Source: Ostreococcus lucimarinus
Lineage: Eukaryota
Assembly: GCA_000092065.1 (NCBI GenBank)
Contig: CP000583.1
Reading direction: 5' to 3' (one strand)
DNA length: 64,000 bases
Both the position numbers and the translations under genes were made by a program. The notes beneath the pieces were generated by a model. The model was given only the letters and a program-made list of their open reading frames with translations. It had not been told where the DNA came from and did no database searches. Each line of letters starts with the position of its first letter. Positions within the stretch are counted from its first letter, which is position 1. Below are positions 7,349 to 60,432 of this stretch, piece by piece.

Positions 7349-7385
<37 letters not shown>

Positions 7386-7484
7386 TTCCTCAGCCGCGTC
7401 ACCGCCGTCGTCGCGCGCGAACGCGACGTCCCACGCCTTTTTCACCGCGCACGCCGTCGCGACCGCGCTCGCGGCGTACCCCAT
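3996..7484 (-). CDS. NTE1: Neuropathy target esterase / PNPLA6-like lysophospholipase (cNMP-binding domains + patatin domain)
   Basis: Patatin motifs ILTGGGGGGLAHLGALRALEE and GTSQG, cNMP-binding domain signatures FAEGDSTDAFYILLKGS; probable start MGYAASAVATACAV at ~7484; the ORF-track N-terminal 210 aa (to 8120) are antisense of the PPIP5K gene and not coding. Confidence 0.85.
7345..7384 (-). repeat. (ACG)13 trinucleotide repeat encoding a poly-Thr tract in the NTE N-terminal region
   Basis: cgtcgtcgtcgtcgtcgtcgtcgtcgtcgtcgtcgtcgtc on plus strand; translates TTTTTTTTTTT in the minus-strand ORF. Confidence 0.85.
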
Positions 7485-7628
7485 CGCTCGCGCCGCGCGT
7501 CGTCCCCGCCCCGCGCCCGCGACGCCGCCATCCCGCGCCATGTCGTCGACGAATGCGGGGAATCGCGTCCTAACGACCGGGACGGCGGCCCGCCCGCCCG
7601 AAGCGTCATTCCCAGACGGACGCGCGCG
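7485..7628. promoter_or_regulatory. ~145-bp head-to-head intergenic spacer, putative bidirectional promoter (NTE / PPIP5K)
   Basis: Divergent start codons at ~7484 (minus) and 7629 (plus). Confidence 0.5.
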
Positions 7629-10600
7629 ATGTCCGAACACGCGGCGCCGACGCGCGACGCGCGGAAGCAAAGCTCGCGCTCGGGCGCGTCGAGCGCGTCC
7701 AAGCACCCGATCGTCACGCTGGGCGTGTGCGCGATGGATAAAAAGTCGCGCTCGAGCGCGATGCGAGAGATCCTGACGCGGATCGAATCGTTCGGGGAGT
7801 TTGAGATTGTGATATTCGGGGACGAGTGCGTGGTGAACGAACCGGTGGAAAATTGGCCCAAGGTGGACGCGCTGATCGCGTTCTACAGCAATGGGTTTCC
7901 GTTGCAAAAGGTGGAGCGGTACGTGGAGATGCACAAGCCCTTTGTGGTGAACGAGCCGAACGACCAGTGGACGCTGCTGGATCGGAGATTGGTGTATAAG
8001 CGGTTGCAGGAACACGATATTCCAGTGCCGAATCACGTGGTGGTGAATCGTAACGATTACATCAAGAAGGGGGCGCTCAGGAAGAAGCCGAAGGGGGATG
8101 AAGTGGCGTTGCCCGATCAACCGACGTTCGAGCCAAAGAATTTCTCACAGGACGAAGAGTACGTGGAAATCAACGGGAAAAGGATATATAAGCCCTTTGT
8201 GGAGAAGCCGGCGAACGCGGAGGATCATAACATTTTTATCTACTACCCACACAGCGTCGGTGGGGGGTACAAGCGCTTGTTTCGGAAGATTGGTAATCAA
8301 TCGAGTCAGTACTACCCTCCTCCTGAAACCACCGCGGCGGGCGAGTTGTCTTACGCCCCGGTTCGGGAGACGACATCTTTCATTTACGAAGATTTCATGT
8401 CAACGAACGGTACAGATGTAAAAGTGTATACTGTTGGTCCGAATTACGCCCACGCCGAAGCTAGAAAGAGTCCAGTCGTCGATGGAAGAGTGCAGAGAGA
8501 CGAGAGCGGCAAGGAGGTGCGTTACCCGGTATTGTTGACGCCAGAGGAGAAAGAAATCGCACGCCGTGTGTGTATAGCGTTTGGGCAGCGAGTTTGTGGA
8601 TTTGATTTACTTCGTGCGAAAGGTCGAAGCTACGTTTGTGACGTCAATGGATGGAGTTTTGTGAAAAACTCCAAAAAATACTATGACGACGCTTCGGTGT
8701 GCTTGCGAGCGATGATTTTGAAAGCCGTAGCGCCGAATCACTTTAGCACTCAGCCTGCTCAAAAAGCCGCGGCATCGGCTAGTGTTGAAGAGCCTGATAT
8801 CATTTTAGATGGTAATGATGCCGAATTGAAGGAAACCAGACTCGAGAAGGCGCCATCACCCAAGGAACCGCCTGAGGAGTTGCGCGCCGTACTCGGCGTC
8901 ATTCGGCACGGCGATCGCACGCCCAAGCAAAAGATGAAACTGAGAGTGAAAAATCGTGAACTTCTTGATCTCATGCTTCGATGCACGAACGGTCGAACTC
9001 GCAAGCAAGCTAAATTGAAGACGCCTCAGACATTGCAAGAACTCTTGAATATTTGCAGGGACATTTACAAAAGTTTGTCTAAGCAAACCTTGGCGCCGAA
9101 AGACGAGGAGGGACATGAAGAGGCGCAAGAAGAACTCGAAGCGTGGAAACAAGTAGTGTCGATTCTCGAAGAAGGAGGACACTTTAGTGGTATCAATCGT
9201 AAAGCGCAGCTCAAACCTCTTGAGTGGGAGACAATCGATGCTGGAACGCTAGACTCTCACACAGAAAAAGTCACCGAGGCTCTCCTCATCATCAAGTTCG
9301 GCGGTGTTTTGACTTATTTGGGTAAATATCAAGCCGAAACACTCGGTAAGGCATTTAGAGTACGAATGTATCCTCGTGGTAACTATTACGGCTCGGACGC
9401 TGATGGTTTACTGAGATTACATTCAACCTATCGCCACGATTTGAAGATTTACTCCTCCGATGAAGGTCGAGTGCAGATCACTGCTGCAGCTTTTGCGAAA
9501 GGTTTACTCGCCCTCGATACCCATCATGGACAGCTCACGCCGATTCTCGCTTCTCTCGTTACCAAAGATGCAAAGTTGTTGGATTTCGTGACTCATTACG
9601 TGGAAGAGGACATCTTACACTCAAAGCACAAGCTGTTCACGGCGATGACATACAAGCCAGATGCACAGCTGAATGACAAAAAGCCGACCGAAGAAGAAAT
9701 TGGGGGATTGTCGCAGACCTTGCGATTTGCTTCGCTGAATAAATTCAAGGTGGTGACACAAATGGTTATGGCTGCGCATCGCTTTCAAAGCGCTGGCGAA
9801 TCATCCCACCACGATACGACTCAAAAAGCTGTCACGCTTTCAACCAATCTCATGGGTGTACCGAAGCAGCCACTCAAGAAACTCGAAATGCTGTATGAAC
9901 TCACGAAATCAATTTCGGTGCAGCTTAGAACGATGCTTTCTAGCCACCAAGTGCGATATGATTCCGATTCCGGCACTAGAATCAACTGGGCCGACACGCA
10001 TTCCGCCGTCGCCCCACGTGGTTCACTTCCAAAAGGAGGTATTCAACAGCTTAAAACCATGATCGTTCCCGCTGGCGGTGAGTCCTTTTTGCTCATGTAT
10101 TCCAGATGGAAAAAGTTAGAGCAAGATCTTTACCATTCGCGTAAAGCTAGGTTTGACATCTCGAAAGTACCAGACGTCTACGACGCGGTAAAATACGATG
10201 CCATTCATAACGAACATTTGGCTTTAGAGGGACTCGAGGCGTTGTACGAAATCGCGAAAGAGCTAGCAGATTGCATTGTTCCGAATGAATACGGTACGAC
10301 GGCTTCGAGCAAGCTACGAATTGGGGGCACCGTTGCCAACAGCTTGATTGCAAAATTGCTAAGCGATTTGAACAACACTCGCGAGGAATCTTTCGCCGTC
10401 GAAAGCGGTGGAATGTCATCGAATGAAATGCGCCGTGTTTCTATCAGCGAAAAGATACCGGTTTTAAATGAAGAAGACGAGGCCGAAACGATCGACGAAG
10501 AGACTGAGCGAGAACGTGAGGAGCAGGAAGAAGAAGAGGAAGAGCTGAACACGACTCGATTGAATTTGCGATACGCCACGGCGCACGGTGTGCATAGCCC

Positions 10601-11363
10601 ATTCAGACACGTGCGCACGCGGCTTTATTTCACCTCTGAATCTCACTTGCATTCGCTCATCAATGTACTTCAGTACGCGCACCTGGACAAGCCTCGAGAA
10701 GATCGCGAGCGAGGTCGCTCTCCGTATCACACCGAACATAGCGAAAGCGACGTCGATGCAAAGGGTCCGACGAAACGCACTTCTACGAAGGGAAGCTCGC
10801 GCGCGAGCAGGGTACCGCCCGGTTTGCCGCTAGGGAGCCCGAAAAAGGAAGAGGATGCTACCAGCGCAAACTCAAGCGTGAGTGCTACGAATGAAACCGT
10901 CAGGCCTTCGCTCATCGACGATGCCTTGGGAGCGTTGTTTAAGCGCGAGAAGGAGCTCGATTATCTTACCCACATCGTGTTTAGAATGTTCGAACGTTTC
11001 CATGTTCCTCCGTCAGATCCTCGACGCTTTCGGATTGAAATTTTGTTCTCCAACGGCGTCAGTTTACACCCGTTTAAGACCAATGCCATCGAACTTTTCG
11101 ACAGCAGCGCTAGGAACGGTGTAGCAGATGAAGACGAGGAGATGATATCTGATGATTTGCTCAAAGAAATACAGATTCAAAACGATAAAATCATGCCTGG
11201 ACAGGATTATCTCACTCTTAGCACCATGGAAGAGTACTTGGTAAACTACAATCGACGCTGGAACAAGGGAGGGGATTCAGCCGATGGCACGCCCGGGAAA
11301 GGCGCGAGGAGCTCGAGTGTTGGCAGCGAGCGAATCAGGGCGGGAAAGAACCTCTTTACTTGA
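7629..11363 (+). CDS. VIP1: Inositol hexakisphosphate / diphosphoinositol-pentakisphosphate kinase (PPIP5K/VIP1): ATP-grasp kinase + histidine acid phosphatase domains
   Basis: N-terminal block IVTLGVCAMDKKSRSSAMREIL..NEPVENWPKVDALIAFYSNGFPL matches PPIP5K closely; RHGDRTPKQK histidine-phosphatase motif; ATG at 7629. Confidence 0.9.
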   Translation: MSEHAAPTRDARKQSSRSGASSASKHPIVTLGVCAMDKKSRSSAMREILTRIESFGEFEIVIFGDECVVNEPVENWPKVDALIAFYSNGFPLQKVERYVEMHKPFVVNEPNDQWTLLDRRLVYKRLQEHDIPVPNHVVVNRNDYIKKGALRKKPKGDEVALPDQPTFEPKNFSQDEEYVEINGKRIYKPFVEKPANAEDHNIFIYYPHSVGGGYKRLFRKIGNQSSQYYPPPETTAAGELSYAPVRETTSFIYEDFMSTNGTDVKVYTVGPNYAHAEARKSPVVDGRVQRDESGKEVRYPVLLTPEEKEIARRVCIAFGQRVCGFDLLRAKGRSYVCDVNGWSFVKNSKKYYDDASVCLRAMILKAVAPNHFSTQPAQKAAASASVEEPDIILDGNDAELKETRLEKAPSPKEPPEELRAVLGVIRHGDRTPKQKMKLRVKNRELLDLMLRCTNGRTRKQAKLKTPQTLQELLNICRDIYKSLSKQTLAPKDEEGHEEAQEELEAWKQVVSILEEGGHFSGINRKAQLKPLEWETIDAGTLDSHTEKVTEALLIIKFGGVLTYLGKYQAETLGKAFRVRMYPRGNYYGSDADGLLRLHSTYRHDLKIYSSDEGRVQITAAAFAKGLLALDTHHGQLTPILASLVTKDAKLLDFVTHYVEEDILHSKHKLFTAMTYKPDAQLNDKKPTEEEIGGLSQTLRFASLNKFKVVTQMVMAAHRFQSAGESSHHDTTQKAVTLSTNLMGVPKQPLKKLEMLYELTKSISVQLRTMLSSHQVRYDSDSGTRINWADTHSAVAPRGSLPKGGIQQLKTMIVPAGGESFLLMYSRWKKLEQDLYHSRKARFDISKVPDVYDAVKYDAIHNEHLALEGLEALYEIAKELADCIVPNEYGTTASSKLRIGGTVANSLIAKLLSDLNNTREESFAVESGGMSSNEMRRVSISEKIPVLNEEDEAETIDEETEREREEQEEEEEELNTTRLNLRYATAHGVHSPFRHVRTRLYFTSESHLHSLINVLQYAHLDKPREDRERGRSPYHTEHSESDVDAKGPTKRTSTKGSSRASRVPPGLPLGSPKKEEDATSANSSVSATNETVRPSLIDDALGALFKREKELDYLTHIVFRMFERFHVPPSDPRRFRIEILFSNGVSLHPFKTNAIELFDSSARNGVADEDEEMISDDLLKEIQIQNDKIMPGQDYLTLSTMEEYLVNYNRRWNKGGDSADGTPGKGARSSSVGSERIRAGKNLFT

Positions 11364-11509
11364 GCGTGCAGTAGCAACATAGCCAATATTGTTTAAAACG
11401 CTAAATAAATCAAATGTGGAGATAGGCAAAAGCAGGGGAAAGGCGATCAGCTTTAATTGGAACCTCGCTTCGCAGCGACGTTTCAAAACGAGTCGTCATA
11501 ATTTATAAT

Positions 11510-12997
11510 TTAATCACCGTTCTCCCACACGAGCATGGTGCGCTTGCCGACCATGACATCGACGAGTTGTCCAAGACGCGTGAACACGGACTCTTGCACG
11601 TAGGGGACACCATACTTCTCGCACACAGCCTTGACGCGCGGCTGCATGTTTTGGTACGCGCGCATGGACATGTCCGGGAACATGTGGTGCTCGATTTGGT
11701 AGTTCAACCAGCCGTGCATGAAATCGTTCGCATCGCCGCCAGTCTTGAAGTTCGCGGAGCCGATCACCGCGCGGAGGTAGAAATCATCCGAACGAGGCTT
11801 CGTTTCCGTCTCGAATCGGTAGATGTCGTCGCCGACGTGGTTGGTGGCGATGATGATGAACGAGTGAACGTTCGTCATAACGTCCGCGAGGACGGAAGTC
11901 ATGAACCAGGCGAGCGCAGCCTTCGGGCCGCCGATGGCGTAGCCAATCGCCGGCAGTGCGGCGAAAGACCAGAGCGCGTATGGAGCGAAGCACTTGATGG
12001 TTTCAGACACAGCAGCAAACTCGCCCTTGAACGCGCCTTGAGCGACCGTGAGAACGGTTGACGGAAGGCTGCCAGTCTTGAACGGGTTTGGCTTGGAGTT
12101 ACCAGCCTTGGCGGCTTCACGCTCCTTACGCGCGAGAAGTTCCTTCAACGTGTTCGGCGCGTAGTAAAACCACTTCCAGACGAGCGCGAGACCAGCGACT
12201 TGGAGATAACGCGACACCATCGGGGTGTTACCTTCGCGGAGCTCTTGCATGTTGCGCTCAACGAGATCCGGATCCGCATCTTCGCCGAGTTGATAATGGT
12301 GCAAGTGGTTGTGTTCTACGTCCCACGCCTCTGGGAGCATCCAATCCATCCAATCGGTGCATCGTCGCCACAAACCGCGCGCAAACTTTCTGCGGTGGAA
12401 TCGACCAGTGACTTCCCCGTTCGTGCTCTGCGCCGCGTTGTAACCACCGTGGCACGTGTGGTGACCGACCATAGTCCATCTCGCGCAAATCGCAGTCGAC
12501 ATCATGAACGCCGCGATCGGATTCATCCCGTTCAACCAAGCCGGCATGTTCAAACCCACCATCGGCATCGCCGTCAGCGCCGCCAACCCGCCAAAGTAGC
12601 ACAGGTTCGCCCACGTCAAAATCTTCTTCAAGTGCTTCACATCCTCCTCGAAGTGTTCCGGCGCCTTGAATTCCTTCTCTATCGCGCGCATTTCCGCCGC
12701 CCATCCCGCGAGATCGAGGTTCTCACGCCACTTCCCCGTCTCGTTGTACGTCATCGTCGTCATCGTCGCCAGAGAGTCAGAGCCGCTCGCCGCGCCGTCG
12801 ATCGCGATCGCCTTGTTCGCGCACGCATTCGCCCCGCGGTTCACGTCCCGCGTCGCGTTCGCGGAGATCGCACCAGCGCGCGCGATCGCGCGCGGCGTTT
12901 GCGCGACGCGTTGACGCGTCGTCGTCGCGCGCGCGCCGTTCGCGCGCGCCGCGGTCGGGCGCGCCGTCAACGTTCGCATCGCGAACGCGCTCATCGT
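11510..12997 (-). CDS. Membrane fatty-acid desaturase with front-end-type His boxes (HHTCH / HNHLHH / QIEHHMFP), no cytochrome b5 domain, Ala/Arg/Thr-rich presumed plastid transit peptide
   Basis: Three histidine boxes with QIEHH third box; N-terminus MSAFAMRTLTARPTAARANGARATTT transit-peptide-like; ORF-track start 13201 is GTG, first ATG ~12997. Confidence 0.7.
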   Translation of the reverse strand, partial: TMSAFAMRTLTARPTAARANGARATTTRQRVAQTPRAIARAGAISANATRDVNRGANACANKAIAIDGAASGSDSLATMTTMTYNETGKWRENLDLAGWAAEMRAIEKEFKAPEHFEEDVKHLKKILTWANLCYFGGLAALTAMPMVGLNMPAWLNGMNPIAAFMMSTAICARWTMVGHHTCHGGYNAAQSTNGEVTGRFHRRKFARGLWRRCTDWMDWMLPEAWDVEHNHLHHYQLGEDADPDLVERNMQELREGNTPMVSRYLQVAGLALVWKWFYYAPNTLKELLARKEREAAKAGNSKPNPFKTGSLPSTVLTVAQGAFKGEFAAVSETIKCFAPYALWSFAALPAIGYAIGGPKAALAWFMTSVLADVMTNVHSFIIIATNHVGDDIYRFETETKPRSDDFYLRAVIGSANFKTGGDANDFMHGWLNYQIEHHMFPDMSMRAYQNMQPRVKAVCEKYGVPYVQESVFTRLGQLVDVMVGKRTMLVWENGD

Positions 12998-18577: not shown

Positions 18578-18894
18578 GACTGCGACGTCACGTGTCGTTT
18601 TCTGTCCCGTCGCGCGTTCGTTCGACGATCCCCGTCGCCCCTTTTACGCCCTCGCGCGACGCCTCCTCGATATCGATCGCCGCGCGCGCGCGACGAACAA
18701 TCTCGATCACTTTCGCGTCGAACGTTCGCGAGCGGCGAGCGCGCGCGCGTCGCGATCGCCCGCGCGGCGCGACGTGTGGGATGAATGCGCGTCCCACGCG
18801 CGTCCCACACGTCCCTCGTCCAGCCTGCGCCGTCGGACCTCGATGCCGCGATCGATCGCGACCAAACTCGATCGACGCGTCTCTCGATGGACGA

Positions 18895-19090
18895 AAGTCG
18901 GTTCATTCGATCGATCGATCGATCGATCGATCGATCGATCTACACACGCGTCTCTCGATCGACGGAAGTGGGTTCAATCAATCGATCGATCGATCTACAC
19001 GTCTGTCGATCGACGTCGATCGATGTTTCGTCGACGCGAGTAGGTTCAATCGATCGATCGATCTACGCGTGCGTCGATCGACTTTCTAGA
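18895..19090. repeat. Three tandem ~65-bp units each containing a (GATC)4-8 tetranucleotide microsatellite
   Basis: ttcaatcgatcgatcgatcgatc...tacacg..gtcgatcgac repeated three times; lies in the divergent promoter region between the PZP-PHD gene and tRNA-IPT. Confidence 0.8.
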
Positions 19091-25950: not shown

Positions 25951-26129
25951 CGTCGCGCGATGCGAGCCACTCGTCGTCGCGTCGTCGGCGCGTCGCGCCG
26001 CGACGTCGATCGGCACTCGCGCGCGCGCCGCGCGCGCCGCGCGCGCGCGCCCGGGAAGAAAACGAACGACGCGCGGTCGCGCGCGTCGGGACGTCGGGAC
26101 GTCGCGGTCGGGCGCGACGGTCGGGATAA

Positions 26130-26199
26130 CGCGCGCGACGGTTGGGATAACGCCGCGACGGTTGGGATAACGCCGCGACGGTTGGGATAACGCGCGCGA

Positions 26200-26243
<44 letters not shown>

Positions 26244-33229: not shown

Positions 33230-33570
33230 GTTCGACGCCCCGCGATCCCGCGATCCCGCGATCCCGCGATCCCGCGATTCGCGTCGCCTCGCGCGTCGTC
33301 GACCGCCGCGTCGTCGTCCCTCCGTCGACGCGCGCGATGAAGTCCCGCGTCGCCGTCGCCGTCGCCGTCGCCGTCGCGCGCGGGATAAACCCTAAGCGAC
33401 GCTTCACGACGCTTCACTCATGGGCTTTATCATCGCTCGAATGCGACGAAAACCATACGAGATCCGATCGGGCGATCGCGCGCGCCGATCGACGCACACC
33501 CGCGTGTGCGAATCCCGCGCGCGCCGATCGACGCACACCCGCGTGTGCGAATCCCGCGCGCGCGATCGCC
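33230..33570. repeat. Promoter-region repeat cluster: (cgcgatcc)5, (gtcgcc)5 and a tandem duplicated 40-bp unit containing the inverted repeat cgcaca-N6-tgtgcg
   Basis: gatcccgcgatcccgcgatcccgcgatcccgcgattcg at ~33235; cgatcgacgcacacccgcgtgtgcgaatcccgcgcgcgc present twice in tandem at ~33487-33565. Confidence 0.8.
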
Positions 33571-40898: not shown

Positions 40899-43800
40899 TC
40901 ACAGCTTGAGCCTATCGCGAATGAGTTCAGCGATGGAGTCCTCTCCGGGACCGATATCCTTGAAGGCGTCGAGAACTTCAACGATGACGTCTTGGCGGCG
41001 CTTCCACTTCGGGCTTCCCTTGTTCACACCCGTGGTGCTGAAGGTGCGCAAGACATCCACAGCGGCGGATGGCGTGAGCCCAGTCAAGAGAGTCGCGGCG
41101 AGTTTCACATCAGGTTCGGGTTTGTCTTCCGGCTTCTCCACGCCCGGGCGCGCGCCGAACCCGAGGCTCGCACGGCGAACAATGCTCACTTGTTCTTCAA
41201 TCTCCAATCCAGCATAAATAACCTTCGCAGTCTTGACGTTGCGGTTTGCAACGACGCGGAGGATTTCGACCCCGTTGTACACAACGCTTCGCAGGTAGTA
41301 CGGAAGGACGAATTCAGCGACACCAACCATGCGACCGGGCTCGGACATGTTAACCAAACCGATGGCGGCTTCGGCGTCTCCAAGGTTCTCCACCATAATG
41401 TCAATCAACGTCGCAGCACGGGTCAAATCGAGACCCATGAGCGCTTCAGCGCCTCGGGTATCTTTTGCGCGCCACAAAGCAGCTAGGGCTGTCGCCGCAG
41501 CTTCCACGTTGGCTGCTCCTTGAAGGATCAACGTTGCGGCGATCGGATCTTCGTCTTCAGAGAGCTCGAGGACAACCTCTTCGATTTCCTCCTTGGATGC
41601 GCTCTTTTCAAGTCGCTTTTGCAAACGAGATGCACGCTCATCGGTGACTTCGTTGTCCGGCTTTGACGCGGCTTCAGCTTGTTCGGCCGCGCGCTCCGCG
41701 GCGGCTGCAGCGTCCGCCTTTGCCTTTGCCTCAGCGGCTACGGCTTCCGCCTTTGCCTTGGCCTGTGCATCCGCCTTGGTCTTGGCCTGTGCATCCGCCT
41801 TTGCCTTGGCCTCTGCATCCGCCTTTGCCTTGGCCTCTGCATCCGCCTTTGCCTTGGCCTCTGCATCCGCCTTTGCCTTGGCCTCTGCCTCTGCCTTGGC
41901 GTCCGCCTTGGCTTTGGCCTCTGCCTCTGCCTTGGCTTTGGCCTCTGCCTCTGCCTTGGCCTTGGCGTCCGCCTTGGCTTTGGCCTCGGCATCCGCCTTT
42001 GCCTTGGCTTCAGCATCCGCCTTTGCCTTAGCCGCCTTCGCCTCTTCTTCAGCCTTACGCTTCGCTAATTCGGCTTCCTTTCGCTTCGCTTCCTCAGCAG
42101 CCTTCTGAGCTTTCGCAGCCTCCTCCTGCGCCTTGGCTTCCGCCTTGCGACGTTCTTCCGCCTCCTTCTCAGCGCGACGCTTCGCCTCGGCAGCCTCCTT
42201 CTCAGCTTGCTTTCTCTTCTCTTCTTGTTCCTTCTCGAGACGCTTCTTCTCCTCCTCAGCTCGTTTGGCAGCCGCCTTAGCGTCCTCGTCAGCTTTTTTC
42301 TTGGCGCGCGCAGCTTCCTCCTCAGCTTGCTTGGCCTTTGCCGCAGCTTCCTTCTCAGCTTGTTCTTTGGCGCGGCGCTGCTCTTCAGCTTGACGCTTCA
42401 AGTCTTCTGCTTGCTTTTTGGAGTCCTTCTTCGCTGCTTCAGCCGCCTTGCGACGGCTTTCCTCTTCGTCGAGGGCCAATTGCTTGCGTCTTTCCGAAGC
42501 AGCCACGCGCTCGGCCTCCGCCGCTGCAGTTGCAATTCGTAACTCCTCCGCGCGTTCAGCAGCTGCGACGGCTTCAAGACGACGGGATTCTTCGAAGCTG
42601 ATCGTCGAAGATTCTTTGAACAAAACGCCCTCAGTTTCGGTCTGGTTGAAAAATCTACGAGTGTCCTCGTCTTGTCTAGCGGCCCACTCTGAATCTCTCC
42701 TGCTCAAAGTTTCTGCGTTCCATGCAAGACGTCGAGCATCAATTTCAGCGATGATGGCGGCGAGCTCGGCTTCGAGCTGCTTGATACGCATCTCAGCCAC
42801 CTTTCTACGGGCGTCTTCCTCTTCACGTAGAGCTCGCTCGGCACGAACAGCTGCGTCAGCTTCCGCGCAGACAGCAGCGTGACGTCCATCTTCATTGTGA
42901 GTTCTAGTCTGCTCCTCCGTCACGGTGCGTTCAATGGACATCTGGGACTGAGCACGGCGCGCCTTAAACTCTTCGTAGTTGGCCGCTGCAGTCTTTTCGA
43001 GAGCTTGCAATTCGGGAATGAGGATTTGAAGTTGCGACTCCATCTGCGTAATAGTAGCGTTGAGATTCTGCATCATGTTGTCGATAGCAATAGGCGAAGC
43101 AGCGGCAAGTCGCCGCGCATCTTCCTTACGTTGTCTCTCCTCCATCATCTTCCTGAACTCGGCGCGACGAGCTTCCTCGGCGTTGAACAAAGCCTTGATC
43201 TTCGCCGCAAAGTCGTCAATCTCTTTCTGCTTGCGCTCGCACTGCGCGTCAAAATCAGCTCTTCGTTGTTTCTCAGCGGCCTCCTTTTGCGCGATGGCGT
43301 CGGCAGCTTGCTTACGGCGCATCTCCTCTTGAGTCTGTAAGAACTCCTCCTTGGCTTCAAGTTCCGCTCGGAACTTGTCGAGAATGTCCGGCAGTTCATC
43401 ACGGAATCGGTCGCGTCTAGCGTCCTCTTTCGCGATAATATCGTCGTCGATGGCCTTTTGATCGGCAATCTTCTTGTCCATCGCCTTGCGTCGGGCTTCT
43501 TCTTCGGCACGGCGCATGGCTTCGTCGCGCACAAGCTTCTTGAGCTCTTCACGCATTTGCAGCAGCTTGGCGTCTTCTCTCAGGCGCTCGGCCGCATCTT
43601 CCGCGCGAAGACGTTCATCTTCGGCTATAGCTTCTTCACGAGACTTTCTGAACTCCGTGACTCTTTGCGCTTCAGCCTCAAGTGCAGCCTTGGCGGCGGC
43701 ATCAGCTTCGCGTCGACGACGTTCCAAGTCGCGAATGAAATCGTCAATTTCTTGACGCTTTCTGGACACCTCATTCGCATGATCTTCACGTCTGCGTTCT

Positions 43801-46800
43801 TCCTGAGCGCGGAGATCTTCTTCAGCTCTTTGTTTTGCTTGGAGTTCAGCCTTGAAAGCTTCACGACGAGCAAGCTCGGAGGCCCACGCAGCGTCTTCGT
43901 CGGAGCGCATCTTTGTAATGCGTTCTTCCTCGGCGTTGCGACGAGCGTCTTCCTCGGCCATCTTCTTTCTCTCGGCTTCCGCAGCAGCACGAATAACATC
44001 TTCCGCTTCTTTAGCTCTAGCATCTTCTCTGGCGCGACGAGCTTGTTCTTCTGCGTCGCGACGCGCTTGTTCGCGATCCCAATCGGCACGGCGTTGATCT
44101 TCACGAGCTCGAGTGCGTGCCTCGTCTTCTTCGCGACGACGAAGCTCGTCAGCTGCGCGGGCTCGGCGATTCTCCTCCGCAACGATAGCACGCTCGAGCG
44201 CTTCTTTTCGCGTGCGACTCTCGCCTTCTTGCGCGCGACGTTTATTCTCGGCCTCCATACGTAACCGTTGCTCTTGTTGCTCCATGTCCCGCAACTTTTG
44301 CTCTGCGGCGACGCGACGGCGATTTTCAGCTTCCACTCTTTCGGCTTCCTTGCGCACAGCCTCGGCAGCAGCAGCATCGGCTTCACGTCGACGGCGCTCT
44401 TCCTCTTCACGCTTTCTACGCTCTGCTTCAGCAGCAGCCAAAAGGTCTTGCTTGGCTTGTTTACGTCTCGCTTCTTCCGCTTCACGTTGAAGCTGTTCCT
44501 TCGTCTTGAATTCATCCTTGTTGATGATGAAATCGATGCGACGAGAATCTTCAGAAGTGCGTCGCAGACCTTCTTGGGAATTGAAAATCAAATTCGCCTT
44601 GTCTTGTTCTTGCTGACGACGTGTTTCTTCTTCCTTCTTAGCCGCTTCTTCTCGAGCAAGTTCTTCTTCATGACGCTTATTTTCGGCACGACGTTGATCC
44701 TCTTCGGCACGAAGTCGGTTTTCAGCTTCTCGCGCAGCTCGAGCGGCATCGTCGTAAGCACGTCGACGCGCATCTTCGGCTTCTCTTTTGCGGCGTTCAG
44801 CATCCTCAGCGGCCTCAGCTTGCGCCTCGACACGAGCGCGCCGTTGATCTTCATCAGCAATTTTGCGCTTTTCAGCCTCTTCGAGGATCTTGATTTCTTC
44901 AAGTCGAGATTTGTGGTTGGCCTCAGCAGTGGCGATGCGTCGCACCTCTTCAGCGTTGATTCGAGCGATCTCTTGAGCATACTTTTGCCGTCGGTTTTCT
45001 TCCGTATCCTTAAGACGAATACCAAGCTGCTTGAACTCTTCAAGGGCTCGACGCTTAGCGGCGAGATCATCGTCCTCTGCCTTTCGCCGATCGCCTTCTG
45101 CCTTTGCAGCGGCTCGCATCGCAGCTTGCGCGTTCGCGGCGCGAATTTCTTCAGCCTTAAGCGCAGCTTCGATGTCTTGCTTTCTGCGATCAGCGTCATT
45201 TTCGGCAGCGATGCGTCGATCTTTTGTATCGCGTTCGAACTTGACAATCGCTTCCCGGAGAGCGTTGATGGCAGCTTCGGCTTCGCGGCGGCGCTTGTCC
45301 TCGTCGTCGCGACGCTTTGCCTCGTCATCCTCCATTTGTAGAAGCTTACGCGCAGCATCATCACGACGACGTTCCTCCGCAGCTTGACGATCGGCTTCTT
45401 CGCGTTCAAGACGCGCACGTTCATCATCAACTGCGCGTCTGATGTCTTCACGAGCCTGCTCTCGCCGGGTATCCTCCGTTTCCTGGAGACGCCTCTCTTC
45501 TTCAAGCTCACGCGCGTGTTCGTCATCCCACGCTCGTCGTCGAGCTTCTTCAGCGGAACGATCGGCGGCGAGAGCATCTCGCATACGTTGAATTCGAGCC
45601 TCAGCTTCCGCACGACGCCGATTTTCTTCATCTTGCAAACGAGCCTCCTTCTCCAAAAGAGATCGCGTCTCGGTGTCGAATCTTGCTCGAAGATCGGCCT
45701 CGAGTCCCTTCGCCTTCTCAAAGTTATTCTTCGCCAAGTTGATATCTTGTTCACCTTGCGCGCGGCGTAGTTGAATAGAGTTGCGAAGGGCATCGATTTC
45801 CTTTCGGCGGCGTTCGATTTCTTCGCGCAATTTCGCGACTGAAACGGGTGCGCCATCATCGCCACCCATGAGGTCCTCGAGGTCACCCTTTTGTGTCTCA
45901 GTGATGACCTTAGTCGTGATGATCTCTTCCGAGTAAATGGCTTCACATTCGTCGTACAGCCTATCGATCCTCTCCTTCTCGAGTCGACGACGTCTGTTCT
46001 CTTTACGCCGCTCGTTGTTTTCATCCTCGACAGCCTTTCGAAGAGCCTCCTCGGCTTCCTTGCGGCGTCTATCTTCCTCCTTGCGAAGTTTACGCTCGCG
46101 AGCATCGATTTCGTCGTGGTATTCCTCGTCCGGCAATTCTTCACGCCTACGGGCGAGACGCGTGTTCACCTTCTCTCGCGTCGTGATTATCGTCTTCTTC
46201 GTTCGTCCATCAAAGCTGTACGCTACCGATGTTGTGACGGTGCCTGCGGCGTCTCCGATGGATGCCGCGACTTCACCGAGCCTCACCGGCTTCATCTCAA
46301 GCAAGTGAATGAAGAGATAGACGATGAAAGCAATCGCAGCACCGATAATACTTGCGTACTCCATGTTCACTACGTACGTGTAGAACGCGCCAGAACCCGA
46401 GAAGGCACCGGCTTCGATCAAATAGGAAACACCAGAAATGAGTGAAAGCAAGTTGGGCGCCGCCGCGACGGCAATGGCAATCATGGCGCGTGGATTCACG
46501 CCCTTAAAGAACCAATATGGACCCTTAGTATCGCGCGTCTGCATTGCTCGTCGCGATAATTTGCCAGCACGCATAAGCCAGAAGTCACACAAAATCACAC
46601 CGAGCACGGGAGAGACTAACAACGAACCAACGCCAATGATCCACGAGGCAGCGGCGACGACTTGTTGCCACATCAACTGAGCCGGCGCAAAGAGGCCGAC
46701 AGCGCAGGTGATGATGAGCGCTGCTTGCTTGGACGAGATCGTACCACCAAGATAGTTCTTGGTCTTTGCCCACGGAAGCGAGAATTCTTGCATATACTCC

Positions 46801-48035
46801 TGCGGACCAACGACGTTTGCGGCACTGTTCGTCACGAGCGAGGCGATGGCAATGGACGCAAATAAAATCGGCTTCGGCGCTTGCGCCATGGCCGCGGCGA
46901 CGATAGCAAACAAACCGGACAGCAAGGGAAGCCAGAAAAACTGACCAATAGGTGCAGTTCTAGAGCCCTTGATGTGCGCTGTGTAATCTGGATACACGCT
47001 CGCGAGCGTCACCCAAACGCCCACCATAAGCCAAGCGTGCTTCCAGAACTCGTTCGGCAAGGCGCCCGGCATACCCGCGGAAATCAACGAACCGATCGCG
47101 GTCTGAGGAATACCTTGACGCAAAGTCCAAGCGATGAAACCTGCCACGAGCGCTAAGACGGTCTGACCAGACGCGAGAAGTCTCGATGAAGGGACGGTGC
47201 GCAAGGAAATTGCGAGCTGCACCACCCAAAACATCGCGTACGACATCGCTCGCACGACTACATCGCTTTCGATACTCGCGGCGATAAACGTCGTTTTGAA
47301 CAATCCGAACACCGCTTCGCCCCCGACCAAAGTTTGCACGGCGTAGAGCAAGAATCCAAGCGTCGCGCGACAGGCGTCGGTGAACTCCGCCCCCCAAATC
47401 CCGAAACTCGAACGCGCCAGGATCGGCATATTCAGTTCGTACTTCGCCGCGGGGTATCCGATTGCAGAGATAAATGGCATCGCCATCAAAGTACCGAGCG
47501 CTGTCGCCAAACCGAGTTCATACCAGAGCAACGGCGCGAGCGTGTGCAAGTTCCACCGAACGAAACCGTACGGCACCGAATACATCACCGCGCACGTCGC
47601 CAGCGCCGCCCACAGCGAGAGTTCCTTGCCCTTCTCGATCGCATTCTCCTCCGTCGTCGGCGGGATGATCAAATCCTCGTCCCCAGGCGCGACGATGAAC
47701 CCTTCGTCATCCTTATCGTCGTCGCCGGTTTGATCGGCGTACCCCAATCCGACGGCGTTCGCGCGCGTCGACGCCTCCCTCATCCCCACGCCTCGCCTTC
47801 GCGTCCCACCCGCGCACGCGGCCTCCCACGCCAATCCACATCGTTTCTTTCCTCCACCGACCACGCGCGCGACGACCGTCGCGCCCCGCGCGCGCGCCCC
47901 GCCCCCCGCCGTTGCCGCATGCGATTGCCCAACGATTGATTTCGCAAATGTCCCGATCGACCCCGCCCGTCGCCCGCTCTCGCGCGCGCCGCTCCGCCGC
48001 TCCGCCGCCGCGCTCGCGGCGGCGCGCAGCGCCAT
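40899..48035 (-). CDS. Giant (~2,380 aa) protein: N-terminal 12-TM permease domain (NCS1/purine-cytosine-permease-like), ~1,500-aa E/R/K/A-rich charged helical (SAH-like) region, KAKADAEA octapeptide array, ~280-aa C-terminal globular domain
   Basis: Single uninterrupted 7.2-kb ORF with coding-like codon periodicity throughout; TM core from ~LWAALATCAVMYSV to ~IVYLFIHLL; ORF-track start 48101 is GTG, first ATG (MALRAAAS) ~48035. Confidence 0.55.
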   Translation of the reverse strand: MALRAAASAAAERRSGARESGRRAGSIGTFAKSIVGQSHAATAGGGARARGATVVARVVGGGKKRCGLAWEAACAGGTRRRGVGMREASTRANAVGLGYADQTGDDDKDDEGFIVAPGDEDLIIPPTTEENAIEKGKELSLWAALATCAVMYSVPYGFVRWNLHTLAPLLWYELGLATALGTLMAMPFISAIGYPAAKYELNMPILARSSFGIWGAEFTDACRATLGFLLYAVQTLVGGEAVFGLFKTTFIAASIESDVVVRAMSYAMFWVVQLAISLRTVPSSRLLASGQTVLALVAGFIAWTLRQGIPQTAIGSLISAGMPGALPNEFWKHAWLMVGVWVTLASVYPDYTAHIKGSRTAPIGQFFWLPLLSGLFAIVAAAMAQAPKPILFASIAIASLVTNSAANVVGPQEYMQEFSLPWAKTKNYLGGTISSKQAALIITCAVGLFAPAQLMWQQVVAAASWIIGVGSLLVSPVLGVILCDFWLMRAGKLSRRAMQTRDTKGPYWFFKGVNPRAMIAIAVAAAPNLLSLISGVSYLIEAGAFSGSGAFYTYVVNMEYASIIGAAIAFIVYLFIHLLEMKPVRLGEVAASIGDAAGTVTTSVAYSFDGRTKKTIITTREKVNTRLARRREELPDEEYHDEIDARERKLRKEEDRRRKEAEEALRKAVEDENNERRKENRRRRLEKERIDRLYDECEAIYSEEIITTKVITETQKGDLEDLMGGDDGAPVSVAKLREEIERRRKEIDALRNSIQLRRAQGEQDINLAKNNFEKAKGLEADLRARFDTETRSLLEKEARLQDEENRRRAEAEARIQRMRDALAADRSAEEARRRAWDDEHARELEEERRLQETEDTRREQAREDIRRAVDDERARLEREEADRQAAEERRRDDAARKLLQMEDDEAKRRDDEDKRRREAEAAINALREAIVKFERDTKDRRIAAENDADRRKQDIEAALKAEEIRAANAQAAMRAAAKAEGDRRKAEDDDLAAKRRALEEFKQLGIRLKDTEENRRQKYAQEIARINAEEVRRIATAEANHKSRLEEIKILEEAEKRKIADEDQRRARVEAQAEAAEDAERRKREAEDARRRAYDDAARAAREAENRLRAEEDQRRAENKRHEEELAREEAAKKEEETRRQQEQDKANLIFNSQEGLRRTSEDSRRIDFIINKDEFKTKEQLQREAEEARRKQAKQDLLAAAEAERRKREEEERRRREADAAAAEAVRKEAERVEAENRRRVAAEQKLRDMEQQEQRLRMEAENKRRAQEGESRTRKEALERAIVAEENRRARAADELRRREEDEARTRAREDQRRADWDREQARRDAEEQARRAREDARAKEAEDVIRAAAEAERKKMAEEDARRNAEEERITKMRSDEDAAWASELARREAFKAELQAKQRAEEDLRAQEERRREDHANEVSRKRQEIDDFIRDLERRRREADAAAKAALEAEAQRVTEFRKSREEAIAEDERLRAEDAAERLREDAKLLQMREELKKLVRDEAMRRAEEEARRKAMDKKIADQKAIDDDIIAKEDARRDRFRDELPDILDKFRAELEAKEEFLQTQEEMRRKQAADAIAQKEAAEKQRRADFDAQCERKQKEIDDFAAKIKALFNAEEARRAEFRKMMEERQRKEDARRLAAASPIAIDNMMQNLNATITQMESQLQILIPELQALEKTAAANYEEFKARRAQSQMSIERTVTEEQTRTHNEDGRHAAVCAEADAAVRAERALREEEDARRKVAEMRIKQLEAELAAIIAEIDARRLAWNAETLSRRDSEWAARQDEDTRRFFNQTETEGVLFKESSTISFEESRRLEAVAAAERAEELRIATAAAEAERVAASERRKQLALDEEESRRKAAEAAKKDSKKQAEDLKRQAEEQRRAKEQAEKEAAAKAKQAEEEAARAKKKADEDAKAAAKRAEEEKKRLEKEQEEKRKQAEKEAAEAKRRAEKEAEERRKAEAKAQEEAAKAQKAAEEAKRKEAELAKRKAEEEAKAAKAKADAEAKAKADAEAKAKADAKAKAEAEAKAKAEAEAKAKADAKAEAEAKAKADAEAKAKADAEAKAKADAEAKAKADAQAKTKADAQAKAKAEAVAAEAKAKADAAAAAERAAEQAEAASKPDNEVTDERASRLQKRLEKSASKEEIEEVVLELSEDEDPIAATLILQGAANVEAAATALAALWRAKDTRGAEALMGLDLTRAATLIDIMVENLGDAEAAIGLVNMSEPGRMVGVAEFVLPYYLRSVVYNGVEILRVVANRNVKTAKVIYAGLEIEEQVSIVRRASLGFGARPGVEKPEDKPEPDVKLAATLLTGLTPSAAVDVLRTFSTTGVNKGSPKWKRRQDVIVEVLDAFKDIGPGEDSIAELIRDRLKL
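41700..42010 (-). repeat. 24-bp coding tandem repeat array (~12 units) encoding (KAKADAEA)n inside the giant ORF
   Basis: plus-strand gccttggcctctgcatccgcctttgccttg units; minus-strand translation AKAKADAEAKAKADAEAKAKAD... Confidence 0.85.
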
Positions 48036-48309
48036 TCGCGCTCGCGCTCGCGACGACTCGCGCGTCCGCGCCACGCACGTCCGCGCGCGCGGCGTTCTCA
48101 CGCGCGCGAAGAGCGAGCGAATTTAAGGGATCGTCGACGAAGATACGACGTCGCGGCGGTTCGCGCGCGTCCGTCGATCGATCGCGCGCGTCGGTCGATC
48201 GATCGCGCGAGGCTCGCGCGATCGATCGACGTCGCGCGCGCGCGACCGACCGAGGGATCGGCGGTCGGTCGACCGCGCGCGCGCGGCGCGAGAGCGCGGC
48301 GCGCGGGTT

Positions 48310-57924: not shown

Positions 57925-58506
57925 GTCGCGCGTCGCGCGATGCGCGCGATCGCGCGACGCGCGCGCGGCGCCATCCGACGTGGCGGGGCGCGCGCGACGG
58001 ATTCGCGCCGCGCGACTGTTTGCGCATACGACAGAGGGTTCGTCTCGAGTCGCGAACGGTCGACGCACGCGCTCGCGCCGGCGCGCGCGAAACGACGAAT
58101 CGTGACTCGTGACTCGATAAACGACGAATCGTGACTCACGACTCGATGGCCGGCGTCCATACGTACCCCCCGACTCTTGAGTCACGATCGGTCGTTTCAC
58201 AACCCTCGACACGAGGCTCGAATCCGCCGGCGTCGACGTCCGCGCGCGACGCGCGACCGACCGCGCGCGCGACGCGAGATCGCGGCGCGTTCGCGCGACG
58301 AGCGACGCGCTCGAGCGCGTCGACGTCGGCGTCGCGCGCCGAGCGAAAGCGCCGCGCGCGCGCGCGAACGCGGCGACGCGACGGACGCGAATCATCGATC
58401 GCGGGCGTCGATCGCGCGATTCGTCGCGGCGATCGATCGACCGATCGCGGGCGCGGACGCGCGCGAAGACGCGCGGGAGGGCGCACGCGCGGGCGCGGGA
58501 CGCGGG

Positions 58507-60432
58507 ATGCGCGCGGCGGTGACGCGGGCGACGCCGGGGGGGCGCGCGGGCGAGGCGAGCGGGCGGGGGGGAGGGAGGGCGCGCGCGGGGACGCGCGGGA
58601 CGCGGGCGACGCGGGGACGCGCGCGATTCGTGGCGACGCGCACGAGCGGTAGCGTGGGGGACGCGGAAGCGCAGGAGGGAGATGAGCCGGACGTGAACGA
58701 TATGTTCGCGGCGGCGGCGAATGAAATGCAGGCGTCGGAACGATTGGAGCGGGACATTCCGGAGTCGATGACGGTGAGGAAGTCGGCGCCGAGGACGATG
58801 GCGTCGTTCGACGGCGCGGACGAGGATGATGAGGGGAACACTGTGTTGGAAACCGTTCTCGATGTCGCGCGCGATCCGGAGAAGGTCATCAAGGGCGTTG
58901 CCGCGGCGGTGACGTTGGGGACGGCGTACACGGTGGCGAGCGAGCCGGCCTTGGCCGCGGGAGGGGCGGCGGCGGCGCTCCTCGTCATCAAGGTTCTCGA
59001 AGCGTTGGCGAAGGAGGGAGATCAAACTCCGGCTGAATTCCAAGCGTCGCTTAAGAAGGATATCAAACCGTTGATGGAAAAGTTGCCGAAAGATTTCGAC
59101 GCGGAGGCGCTCACGAAGAAGGCGTCGGAGACCGGGGCGAAACTCTTTGAAAGGGCGCAGTCGGTGACTGATTCTTTCGATGAGGTGTTTGGTGGGTTGA
59201 ACTTTGGTGGCGACGCAGACGATGAAGCCGAAGCCGCGGCTTCCAAGTTGCTTGAAATCCGTAGGGCGGACGAGAAGGCTGCGTTGGAAGCGCAAGCCGC
59301 CGAAGACGCCGCGGCGTCGTTCGCCGAAACCGAGGCCAAGGCCAAGGCTGACGCTGCCGCCGCCGCCGCCGCCGCCGCCGCTGAAGCCAAGGCGAAGGCT
59401 GACGCCGAAGCCGCGAAGATTGCCGCCGAAGCCAAGGCGAAGGCTGACGCCGAAGCCAAGGCGAAGGCTGACGCCGAAGCCGCGAAGATTGCCGCCGAAG
59501 CCAAGGCGAAGGCTGATGCCGAAGCCAAGGCGAAGGCTGATGCCGAAGCCAAGGCGAAGGCTGACGCCGAAGCCGCGAAGATTGCCGCCGAAGCCAAGGC
59601 GAAGGCTGACGCCGAAGCCAAGGCGAAGGCTGACGCCGAAGCCAAGGCGAAGGCTGACGCCGAAGCCGCGAAGATTGCCGCCGAAGCCAAGGCGAAGGCT
59701 GATGCCGAAGCCAAGGCGAAGGCTGACGCCGAAGCCAAGGCGAAGGCTGACGCCGAAGCCGCGAAGATTGCCGCCGAAGCCAAGGCGAAGGCTGACGCCG
59801 AAGCCGCGAAGATTGCTGCTGCCAAGGCGAAGGCTGACGCCGAAGCCAAGGCGAAGGCTGATGCCGAAGCTGCGAAGGTTGCCGCTGCCAAGGCAAAGGC
59901 TGATGCCGACGCCGAAGTTAAGGCGAAACGCGCGGCTGAAGCTGAAGCCAAGAAGCGCTCGCAAGAGGAAGCCGAACAGAAGGTTGCGCAACAAGTGATG
60001 GCGGCACAGAAGGTGGCGAAGAAACAAGAAGAGTGGGAGAACTCTTTGCTAAAATTGCAGTACAGCGAGCAGATCATTGAAGATATTCGCGTCGCGGACG
60101 CAAACGCGGTTGAACGCGCGCATGCGCGTCGCCTCGGATTGGATTTCACCCCAGAAGTGGCAAAACAAATGCCAGGAACCGAGTACTCTTGGGGCTCGCA
60201 GACGAACGTCAAACCTGGTGAAGTGATCAGCGCTTTGAACTCCGCCGATGAAGGTTTTGCGTCGTCGAAGAACCGCGCTCGTTCGGCGCTCGGATTGCCG
60301 CAGAAAGACGACCAGCCGGTGGCGGAGAAGCAAGAGCCGTGGTGGGCGACTTTCATAAGAGTTTTCGTGAACATGTTGATCGCTGCCGCCATCGCTGCGT
60401 TCACGTACTTGGTCGTTCGTAGCATGCTGTAA
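58507..60432 (+). CDS. Tail-anchored protein with transit-like N-terminus, helical N-domain, ~190-aa (AEAKAKAD / AEAAKIAA)n array and C-terminal TM helix
   Basis: Non-repetitive N-domain (MFAAAANEMQASERLERD...KLFERAQSVTDSF), 24-bp coding tandem repeats 59340-59900, C-terminus EPWWATFIRVFVNMLIAAAIAAFTYLVVRSML*. Confidence 0.6.
   Translation: MRAAVTRATPGGRAGEASGRGGGRARAGTRGTRATRGRARFVATRTSGSVGDAEAQEGDEPDVNDMFAAAANEMQASERLERDIPESMTVRKSAPRTMASFDGADEDDEGNTVLETVLDVARDPEKVIKGVAAAVTLGTAYTVASEPALAAGGAAAALLVIKVLEALAKEGDQTPAEFQASLKKDIKPLMEKLPKDFDAEALTKKASETGAKLFERAQSVTDSFDEVFGGLNFGGDADDEAEAAASKLLEIRRADEKAALEAQAAEDAAASFAETEAKAKADAAAAAAAAAAEAKAKADAEAAKIAAEAKAKADAEAKAKADAEAAKIAAEAKAKADAEAKAKADAEAKAKADAEAAKIAAEAKAKADAEAKAKADAEAKAKADAEAAKIAAEAKAKADAEAKAKADAEAKAKADAEAAKIAAEAKAKADAEAAKIAAAKAKADAEAKAKADAEAAKVAAAKAKADADAEVKAKRAAEAEAKKRSQEEAEQKVAQQVMAAQKVAKKQEEWENSLLKLQYSEQIIEDIRVADANAVERAHARRLGLDFTPEVAKQMPGTEYSWGSQTNVKPGEVISALNSADEGFASSKNRARSALGLPQKDDQPVAEKQEPWWATFIRVFVNMLIAAAIAAFTYLVVRSML
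59340..59900 (+). repeat. 24-bp coding tandem repeat array (gccgaagccaaggcgaaggctgac; higher-order 72/96-bp units) encoding AEAKAKADAEAKAKADAEAAKIA...
   Basis: Near-perfect DNA repeats visible 59341-59900. Confidence 0.9.

Follow-up and report, generated by a model that had tools for sequence, protein, structure and literature searches.

Two genes in a 64-kb stretch of DNA of Ostreococcus lucimarinus CCE9901 (contig CP000583.1, 64,000 nucleotides, in the following called the window) were found to encode tandem arrays of the same octapeptide (octad), AEAKAKAD, with different codons. One is a giant open reading frame (ORF) on the minus strand, the other, termed gene B, lies on the plus strand and encodes a protein of 576 amino acids (aa). 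The presence of the octad in both genes and its different spelling had been noticed in a sequence-only reading of the window, and both were verified by tandem repeat analysis, in-frame units and a comparison of the consensus units. Our overall interpretation, which we regard as probable, is that the arrays are coding minisatellites that encode charge-patterned helical spacers, and that the common octad represents a common physical solution that does not require a shared binding partner.

One octad encoded with different codons

The two arrays are located as follows:
41746..42034, minus strand: array A in the giant ORF, a 24-bp coding minisatellite that encodes AEAKAKAD and variants (evidence: Tandem Repeats Finder (TRF), codon table, orthologous arrays).
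59328..59904, plus strand: array B in gene B, including degenerate edge units (evidence: TRF core at 59379-59870, codons, unit maps).

TRF analysis revealed that array A has a period of 24 bp and comprises 11.8 copies, with 86% matches and 4% indels. Its translation from the minus strand, ...AKAKADAEAKAKADAEAKAKADAKAKAEAEAKAKAEAE...AEAKAKADAAAAAER, contains eight exact AEAKAKAD units as well as the variants AEAKAKAE, AQAKAKAD and AQAKTKAD, and the imperfections are swaps between D and E, substitutions by Q and T, and indels of six residues. The main spelling, GCA GAG GCC AAG GCA AAG GCG GAT, was found in four of the eight exact units. Array B also has a period of 24 bp (about 21 copies), but it is best described as a 93-bp higher-order unit, which is present in 5.0 copies with 93% matches. 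It contains 14 exact AEAKAKAD units in runs of one to three, which are split by six AEAAKIA heptamers. In 13 of the 14 units the spelling is GCC GAA GCC AAG GCG AAG GCT, followed by GAC (nine units) or GAT (four units). The heptamer is encoded by 21 bp (GCC GAA GCC GCG AAG ATT GCC), and this variant unit of seven residues gives rise to the higher-order periods of 45, 69 and 93 bp. The two 24-bp spellings that had been quoted in the sequence-only reading are indeed the dominant units of the respective arrays. The variant had been described as AEAAKIAA in units of 72/96 bp, and this had to be corrected. Both arrays had been called nearly perfect, which holds for gene B, but not for the giant ORF with its substitutions and indels.

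Next, the two arrays were compared. The consensus units are identical at 19 of 24 bases, and the third codon positions match at three of the eight codons and differ at five, while 3.5-4.05 matches are expected under random synonymous spelling with the codon usage of the window. A blastn alignment of array A with array B showed about 70% identity and did not extend past the array ends. The third positions are thus at the random level, and the view that neither array is a recent DNA copy of the other was upheld. A distance of 17.3 kb separates the arrays, which lie on opposite strands, and the order of the giant ORF and gene B is retained in other Ostreococcus clades, so that the genes cannot be called unlinked, as had been assumed. 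No further array of the AEAKAKAD type was found within the window when all frames were scanned.

Both sites have head-to-tail units with a period of 24 bp (in array B together with the 93-bp higher-order unit). The unit lengths of 24, 21, 18 and 30 bp are multiples of three, and the ORFs are intact in the window and in more than 50 orthologous loci. Outside of the arrays no similarity between the two proteins was detected when gene B, after removal of its array, was aligned with the giant protein by BLASTP (best E=0.15). Therefore, the giant protein and gene B are not paralogues, and the proposal of a paralogous pair was discarded. Apart from the two arrays, the intergenic DNA of the window is full of CG-rich or TCGA-type short tandem repeats (e.g., 18849-19063, 26112-26243, 33477-33568 and 58243-58645), and the TRF output for the 64 kb had 104 rows.

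The giant gene and the age of its array

The giant ORF and its parts are:
40899..48101, minus strand: giant ORF, with candidate start ATGs at 48035 or 47783 (evidence: ORF list and translation).
46404..47531, minus strand: NCS1-type nucleobase/cation permease domain, which anchors the giant protein in the membrane (evidence: Pfam PF02133).
42035..46136, minus strand: long charged helical region (evidence: composition and i/i+4 scan).
40902..41690, minus strand: C-terminal all-helical domain with a putative MgtE-N/FliG-like fold.

The ORF has 2,400 codons and encodes a protein of 2,300-2,400 aa, depending on the start that is chosen. The order within the protein is the NCS1 permease, an E/R/K/A-rich helix of about 1,450 aa, the octad array, and the C-terminal helical domain. 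The match to PF02133 had 99.8 bits (cut-off 23.5; E=2.1e-28), and it covers positions 39-429 of the 440 profile positions and residues 85-460 of the protein counted from the start at 47783. The long charged region consists of 21% A, 19% E, 16% R, 9% K and 8% D, contains almost no Pro or Gly, is rich in i/i+4 pairs of opposite charge, and resembles a typical ER/K stretch. For the C-terminal domain no Pfam match was found at E values up to 10. The same layout is present without interruption in other Ostreococcus clades and also in a relative with a 46% identical end domain (L001, L002), indicating that the giant ORF is one real, conserved gene; the architecture is conserved also outside of Ostreococcus, in related algae. 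An exact-sequence look-up of the giant protein from either candidate Met gave no match, and a literature search on Ostreococcus and NCS1 revealed nothing relevant. The G+C content of the giant ORF (40899-47783) is about 0.55 and thus below that of the surroundings (0.60-0.69), and its alanine codons are unlike those of five neighboring ORFs (GCG 0.29 versus 0.65).

The orthologous region was taken from seven ENA contigs and from 56 metagenome loci (JGI/NCBI) in which the array was complete. A first protein search with the C-terminal domain had yielded only five fragmentary gene calls, and the loci were recovered from contigs and by a metagenome scan. Prokaryote-style gene callers fragment the giant ORF, and full-length orthologues are therefore missed by a protein database search. 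In addition, metagenome assemblies frequently break or frameshift within these arrays, as seen from runs of N in the ENA scaffolds (L001-L007) and from translations of the PKPRRRL type (P0045, P0048).

In a neighbor-joining tree of the end domain, the clade of the window was separated from a sister group and from three deeper groups within Ostreococcus, and relatives from outside of Ostreococcus branched outside of these. The repeats at the array site of the giant ORF are:
Clade of the window (L013-L022): AEAKAKAD together with variants, as found in the window.
Sister group (L023 type; L030/L007 type): (AEAKAKAD)n, the variants being AEAKAKAA or AQAKAKAD.
Deeper group (L037 type): AEAKAKAE and AEAKAKAD, mixed.
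Deeper group (L002 type): AEAEAKAK.
Deeper group (L005/L043 type): the decamer AAAKAKADAD.
Relatives outside of Ostreococcus (L059-L068): Ala-rich, without periodicity.

An array of the AKAKA(D/E)A(D/E) type was thus present in all of the five or six Ostreococcus clades sampled, and the giant-ORF array is, as judged from this distribution, ancient within Ostreococcus. Its length varied by one or two units among clade-A loci, and no frameshift was found in the array across more than 50 loci. The dominant units of three groups that share the octad were compared with the unit of the window:
L023: GCT GAA GCC AAG GCG AAG GCT GAC, five codon changes.
L030: GCC GAG GCC AAG GCT AAG GCT GAC, four codon changes.
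L037: GCG GAA GCC AAA GCC AAG GCG GAC, five codon changes.

The four to five codon changes were all synonymous and none was non-synonymous, while the DNA identity of these clades to the window across the locus is about 71-74%. This indicates that the octad in the giant ORF is under purifying selection while its spelling turns over, and, at least for this gene, the proposed selection on the peptide was borne out. The same result shows that arrays that are certainly homologous are respelled at four to five of eight codons. Different codons thus do not exclude common ancestry, and the argument that had been built on them in the sequence-only reading does not hold.

Gene B and the exchange of its linker

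Gene B has the following features outside of array B:
58702..60432, plus strand: gene B, 576 aa, 100% identical to the NCBI 'predicted protein' P0017 of O. lucimarinus CCE9901.
58933..59010, plus strand: internal hydrophobic segment, residues 78-103 (evidence: Kyte-Doolittle 19-residue window above 1.6).
60340..60429, plus strand: C-terminal hydrophobic anchor WWATFIRVFVNMLIAAAIAAFTYLVVRSML, residues 547-576 (evidence: hydropathy up to 2.34).

P0017 is encoded on a 983-kb contig. Gene B lies in the plus-strand ORF 58177-60432, and an in-frame ATG at 58507, upstream of 58702, would add an Arg-rich N-terminal extension. The protein starts with a conserved N-terminal part that contains the internal hydrophobic segment, followed by the linker, the strongly conserved block LLKLQYSEQIIEDIRVADANAVERAHARRLGLDFTPEVAK and the hydrophobic C-terminus. 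The internal segment is kept in the alignment of the orthologues, and a PWW motif together with the hydrophobic tail was found in all of them. Both host proteins are thus membrane proteins, as had been claimed, the giant protein by its permease domain and gene B by its conserved hydrophobic C-terminus. Gene B had been regarded as tail-anchored. The C-terminal anchor fits this description, but, with the second hydrophobic segment and the possible Arg-rich extension, gene B is not a simple tail-anchored protein. No Pfam domain was detected in gene B at E values up to 10. The family is small, i.e., eight representatives were found among 1.8 billion proteins, and these are presumably close relatives in the order Mamiellales.

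Outside of the linker 47 database proteins are at least 97% identical to gene B, and all 45 complete ones contain arrays of the AEAKAKAD type. In contrast, every homologue beyond this group has a linker rich in Pro, Val, Glu and Lys at the site of the array. One group carries a 24-bp array that encodes KPEPVEEV (6.5 copies with 96% matches in L010, 10738-10893), and the lengths of its proteins rise in steps of exactly 8 aa (380, 388, 396 ... 461). Another group has a Pro-rich unit of 45 bp (L008, 7610-7730), and the proteins P0049-P0120 belong to the orthologues with either type of Pro-rich linker. The loci of this second group (L008/L009) do not overlap with the loci of the giant ORF, and therefore no giant-ORF clade was assigned to it. 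Both genes are present together, with the same spacing of 17 kb, on contig MDTE01000600.1 of the sister group. There, the giant ORF has (AEAKAKAD)n (L030), and gene B (L072 = P0112) has the KPEPVEEV array. As the linker is Pro-rich in all other homologues, the Ala-rich, charged array of gene B is new and confined to the O. lucimarinus lineage. All Ostreococcus clades sampled carry a repeat array at each of the two sites, and the gene B linker site is, from these sequences, a length-variable minisatellite in every clade.

A comparison of repeat copy number among strains had been proposed, and the length polymorphism was indeed found. In environmental variants of O. lucimarinus (45 unit maps) the array region of gene B ranged from 46 to 195 aa between near-identical flanks; short-read assemblies can collapse repeats, and this range is possibly inflated. 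The order of the D-type units and the heptamers also differed among the variants, and the additional unit types AEAKAKAE, AEAAKAA and AAAKAKAD were observed. A separate chromosome-scale assembly (962-kb contig) differed from gene B by one residue outside of the array and by the order of the units within it. The contig L012 is from the same species and contains unit types that are missing from the reference. Its gene B had one synonymous and five non-synonymous differences in the 271 codons before the array, counted from the upstream ATG, and none in the 174 codons after it, which were invariant among the O. lucimarinus strains. Over 202 codons of the pre-array region the ratio of non-synonymous to synonymous changes was 3:1 for L076 and 1:0 for L075. 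Non-synonymous changes thus outnumbered synonymous ones before the array in all three loci (compared with the window at 58702-59514), although these are small numbers. In L012 a gene call of 2,516 aa with Helitron_like_N and PIF1 domains (5737-12279, minus strand) is located just past the MJ1567-like gene downstream of gene B; the window stops before the equivalent position.

It was also considered whether one gene B repeat had arisen from the other by a frameshift or from the opposite strand, and this was ruled out by the peptides of the alternative frames. We read the remaining frames of the KPEPVEEV unit as SPSPSRRS, ARARRGGQ and DLLDGLGL. The +1 frame of the AEAKAKAD array encodes PKPRRRLT, which is visible in the frameshifted calls P0045 and P0048.

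The free drift of copy number and unit order in gene B, and a linker chemistry that is interchangeable across clades, would be expected if the arrays were tolerated products of slippage without any role. Such a neutral expansion is nevertheless unlikely, because the octad of the giant ORF has no non-synonymous versus four to five synonymous changes at about 74% DNA identity, and because both sites carry arrays in all Ostreococcus clades sampled, with an unbroken frame in more than 50 loci.

Origin of the same octad in two genes

Two explanations for the presence of the same octad in gene B were weighed, and the odds between them are roughly even. According to the first, which may well be true, the linker of gene B received, in the O. 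lucimarinus lineage, an inverted copy of a piece of the giant-ORF array together with its 3' junction. This ectopic seeding would have replaced the Pro-rich repeat, and the two arrays would then have been homogenized separately until their spellings had diverged. In favor of it, the array of the putative donor, the giant ORF, is older than that of the recipient, and the two arrays are only 17 kb apart and are the sole such pair in 64 kb. Within this genome the match of the third positions is no better than chance, which speaks against a copy, but, because orthologous arrays are respelled at four to five of eight codons between clades, a chance-level match today is compatible with descent. No gene B array of any strain compared has the giant-type spelling. 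Its absence from the gene B arrays of four strains also ruled out that gene conversion between the two arrays is ongoing.

The comparison with the sister clade is in favor of seeding. The dominant unit of gene B is only one codon away from the L023 unit of the giant ORF, and a minor gene B unit, GCT GAA GCC AAG GCG AAG GCT GAC, is identical to it. Likewise, the gene B array aligned with the giant array of the sister clade at 87% identity over 338 nucleotides (nt; 309 bits), but with the giant array of its own genome at 86% over only 66 nt (60 bits). Codon optimization was ruled out as the cause of this common spelling, as the neighboring ORFs favor GCG and GAG. On the other hand, the match depends on about five freely varying sites and many comparisons were made; a rough estimate of its probability by chance is 1-10%. 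In addition, the close subclades L023 and L030 (96% aa identity) are already two to three codons apart, and a spelling retained since the split of the clades would be unexpected.

The next piece of evidence concerns the junctions. Downstream of both arrays A-K-R-A-A-E-(Q)-A-E-A is encoded by nearly identical codons, and a Smith-Waterman comparison with codon shuffles gave p=0.045 for the window and p=0.008 for the strain variant L013. However, this match was noticed post hoc, and a search of the whole window with the non-repeat flanks of gene B does not single out the junction of the giant array. Furthermore, the gene B array is flanked on each side by about 40 aa of non-repeat sequence, for which the giant ORF has no equivalent.

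The second explanation, to which we give the same weight, is convergence. The linker of gene B, a hotspot for minisatellites in all clades, would have become an Ala/Glu/Lys helix in O. lucimarinus and would have independently amplified the only simple octad with Ala at the odd positions and with all charges paired at i±4. The octad recurs in other proteins, as exact AEAKAKAD was present in 67 of the 120 database matches listed, in 18 of them in tandem (two to five copies). These matches are unrelated small proteins, bacterial wherever the source names an organism, and several are called TolA-like. Within the genome no similarity at synonymous sites is left between the arrays. The gene B array is embedded in about 80 aa of non-repetitive sequence rich in A, E, K and Q, which could have served as a seed. 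The site readily forms repeats, since its array differs by clade (24 bp, 45 bp), and the series AEAKAKAA, AEAAKAA, AEAAKVA and AEAAKIA inside of the gene B arrays shows that they diversified locally. What remains difficult for convergence is that the exact match to the octad of the neighboring gene must be a coincidence, although AEAKAKAE and AAAKAKADAD are also used in the genus, and that the match to the sister-clade spelling and the match of the junctions must be due to chance.

Charge pattern, predicted structure and role

AEAKAKAD has Ala at each odd position, and the even positions are charged in the order -, +, +, -, so that the arrays consist of 50% Ala and 50% charged residues. In 40 residues of the pure octad all 20 charged residues are in i/i+4 pairs of opposite charge and none in a pair of like charge. 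The windows of the gene B array contained 13-17 opposite and no like pairs per 40 residues, and the main window of the giant array (from residue 1951) contained 18 opposite and two like pairs. Both arrays have no or one bulky hydrophobic residue (L/I/V/M/F/W/Y) per 40 residues, and Pro and Gly are absent. The period of eight residues is incompatible with heptads, and a hydrophobic heptad seam is missing. AlphaFold2 (AF2) predicted a helix for residues 176-477 of gene B, with predicted local distance difference test (pLDDT) values of 70-87, and also for the array end of the giant protein (pLDDT 70-80); outside of the helix the confidence for gene B was low (mean pLDDT 56). The charge pattern of the octad follows the rule by which stable, Ala-based helices are designed with Glu-Lys ion pairs, as in the Marqusee-Baldwin peptides and in (EAAAK)n linkers. 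Among the sequences of solved structures (PDB) none with an array of the AEAKAKAD type was found, and the octad was not found, in any rotation, in the papers of the library searched. The nearest array in solved structures is the tail of the ribosomal protein eL29 (6d90_b, 11he_29, 7nfx_b), which has an octad repeat of the A-Q-A-K-P-K-A-Q type; eL29 is unrelated to both host proteins and represents another Ala/Lys octad array.

The arrays are most likely stiff, length-variable helical spacers rather than binding sites for partners. Both the helical conformation and the role as a spacer are what we infer. Single alpha-helix (SAH) domains, which obey the same charge rule, serve as rigid connectors or springs, according to passages in PMC5812594 and PMC4183817. 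Since each array lies between a membrane anchor and a conserved domain, and since the linker of gene B can be swapped for a PEVK-like repeat, a length-variable spacer is the simplest reading, and the interchange of Pro-rich and Ala-rich repeats in gene B is in itself an argument for it. Mechanistically, arrays of 24-bp units would grow, shrink and become homogenized via slippage and unequal exchange. Each array would form an Ala-based, charge-patterned helix that parts a membrane anchor from a distal domain, and opposite charges at i±4 on both sides of each charge would make the helix stable, soluble and rod-like. In the giant protein, the array would be the last segment of the helical rod of about 1,450 residues between the NCS1 permease and the MgtE-N-like end domain. 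In gene B, the array is young and has taken the place of a Pro-rich, PEVK-like minisatellite, so that this gene would conserve the presence of a repetitive spacer and not the AEAKAKAD peptide itself. As the chemistry of the gene B linker is interchangeable, the common octad would represent a common physical solution and no shared partner would be needed.

Several points weigh against a role as helical spacers. The motif EAK16-II, AEAEAKAKAEAEAKAK, of yeast zuotin was the source of ionic self-complementary peptides, and the 16-residue EAK16 was modelled as a helix and yet forms very stable beta-sheet fibres in vitro (PMC2387071). With 50% Ala, the arrays carry less charge than textbook ER/K single alpha-helices. 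The AF2 confidence on low-complexity helices does not provide strong evidence, and AF2 folds the helix of gene B into a hairpin at residues 303-315, which is probably an artefact. The spacer role of both arrays was deduced from their architecture only, and the identical octad in genes 17 kb apart is a coincidence that a common physical solution absorbs only in part.

The sequence-only reading had proposed that the two proteins share a binding partner. The peptide would then be kept because both proteins bind one partner, or each other, via the array. Indeed, one and the same octad occurs in two membrane proteins of a single cell, it is under purifying selection in the giant ORF, and sequences of the EAK16 type are ionically self-complementary and can associate (PMC2387071). 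However, the other clades have a chemically opposite Pro-rich linker in gene B while their giant ORF retains the array of Ala, Lys and acidic residues. The array region of gene B varies from 46 to 195 aa even within O. lucimarinus, including units with E instead of D, and no further sign of co-evolution between the proteins was seen. A shared partner is thus very unlikely. Also very unlikely is a special case of self-complementarity like that of EAK16-II, in which the array at the tip of the giant rod might associate with that of gene B like a zipper, either in sheets or in paired helices, and might tether two membranes or compartments. The permease-anchored rod could be about 200 nm long in a cell of 1 micrometre, and gene B would have captured the repeat of its neighbor in place of its PEVK-like linker.

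Taken together, the feature is of an ordinary, known kind, i.e., coding minisatellites that encode low-complexity helical spacers, and does not represent a new class of system. Its value lies in the observation that purifying selection can preserve a low-complexity peptide throughout a genus while concerted evolution rewrites the codons, and that an orthologous linker can switch entirely from a Pro-rich to an Ala-rich, charged repeat. It also follows that different codons are a weak argument against the common descent of tandem arrays. The giant host protein, with its NCS1 permease, its helix of about 1,450 residues and its putative MgtE-N-like domain, may be more interesting than the repeat.

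Comparison with known systems

Among the closest known systems is the EAK16-II motif. In both cases Ala alternates with charges in the order --++, and the octad, when read as ADAEAKAK, is the motif with one Glu replaced by Asp. AEAEAKAK itself is found in the giant ORF of two other Ostreococcus clades, and the geometry of the i/i+4 ion pairs is also alike. The two differ in that 12-25 units are found within large membrane proteins here, in contrast to a single stretch of 16 residues, and in that the isolated 16-mer forms beta-sheet fibres (PMC2387071), whereas the Ostreococcus arrays are predicted by AF2 to be helical. EAK16-II, which is known chiefly from peptide materials science, thus occurs naturally as arrays of 100-200 residues.

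The next example is domain II of TolA and similar stalks of the bacterial envelope. The likeness to TolA had been noticed before, and it is real as a likeness of composition. A membrane anchor is followed by a long helix of Ala, Lys and acidic residues, and exact AEAKAKAD tandems are present in bacterial proteins that are named TolA or 'colicin uptake' by their sources. In contrast to TolA, the host is a eukaryote, and the two proteins are anchored by an NCS1 permease and by a hydrophobic C-terminal tail, respectively. TolA domains, e.g., the C-terminal domain III, were not detected by Pfam in either protein, and the sole Pfam match was PF02133 in the giant ORF.

The charged SAH (ER/K) domains of myosins, INCENP, CAF-1 and drebrin also have dense i/i+4 pairs of opposite charge and no hydrophobic seam, and the role of connector or spring between domains that passages in PMC5812594 and PMC4183817 describe for SAH domains is predicted for the arrays as well. 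Unlike these domains, the arrays have 50% Ala, use Lys and Asp rather than chiefly Glu, Arg and Lys, and are exact tandem repeats instead of aperiodic sequences.

PEVK-type linkers resemble the KPEPVEEV-type 24-bp arrays, which are length-variable and occupy the site of the gene B array in other clades. Titin PEVK is an example of such a Pro-rich repeat linker. The chemistry is opposite, i.e., an extended Pro-rich chain versus an Ala-rich helix. Lastly, coding minisatellites (variable number tandem repeats, VNTRs) have the same in-frame units of 21-30 bp, undergo concerted evolution, and are polymorphic in copy number and order between strains. What distinguishes the present case from other VNTRs is that two adjacent, non-homologous genes spell one unit peptide differently.

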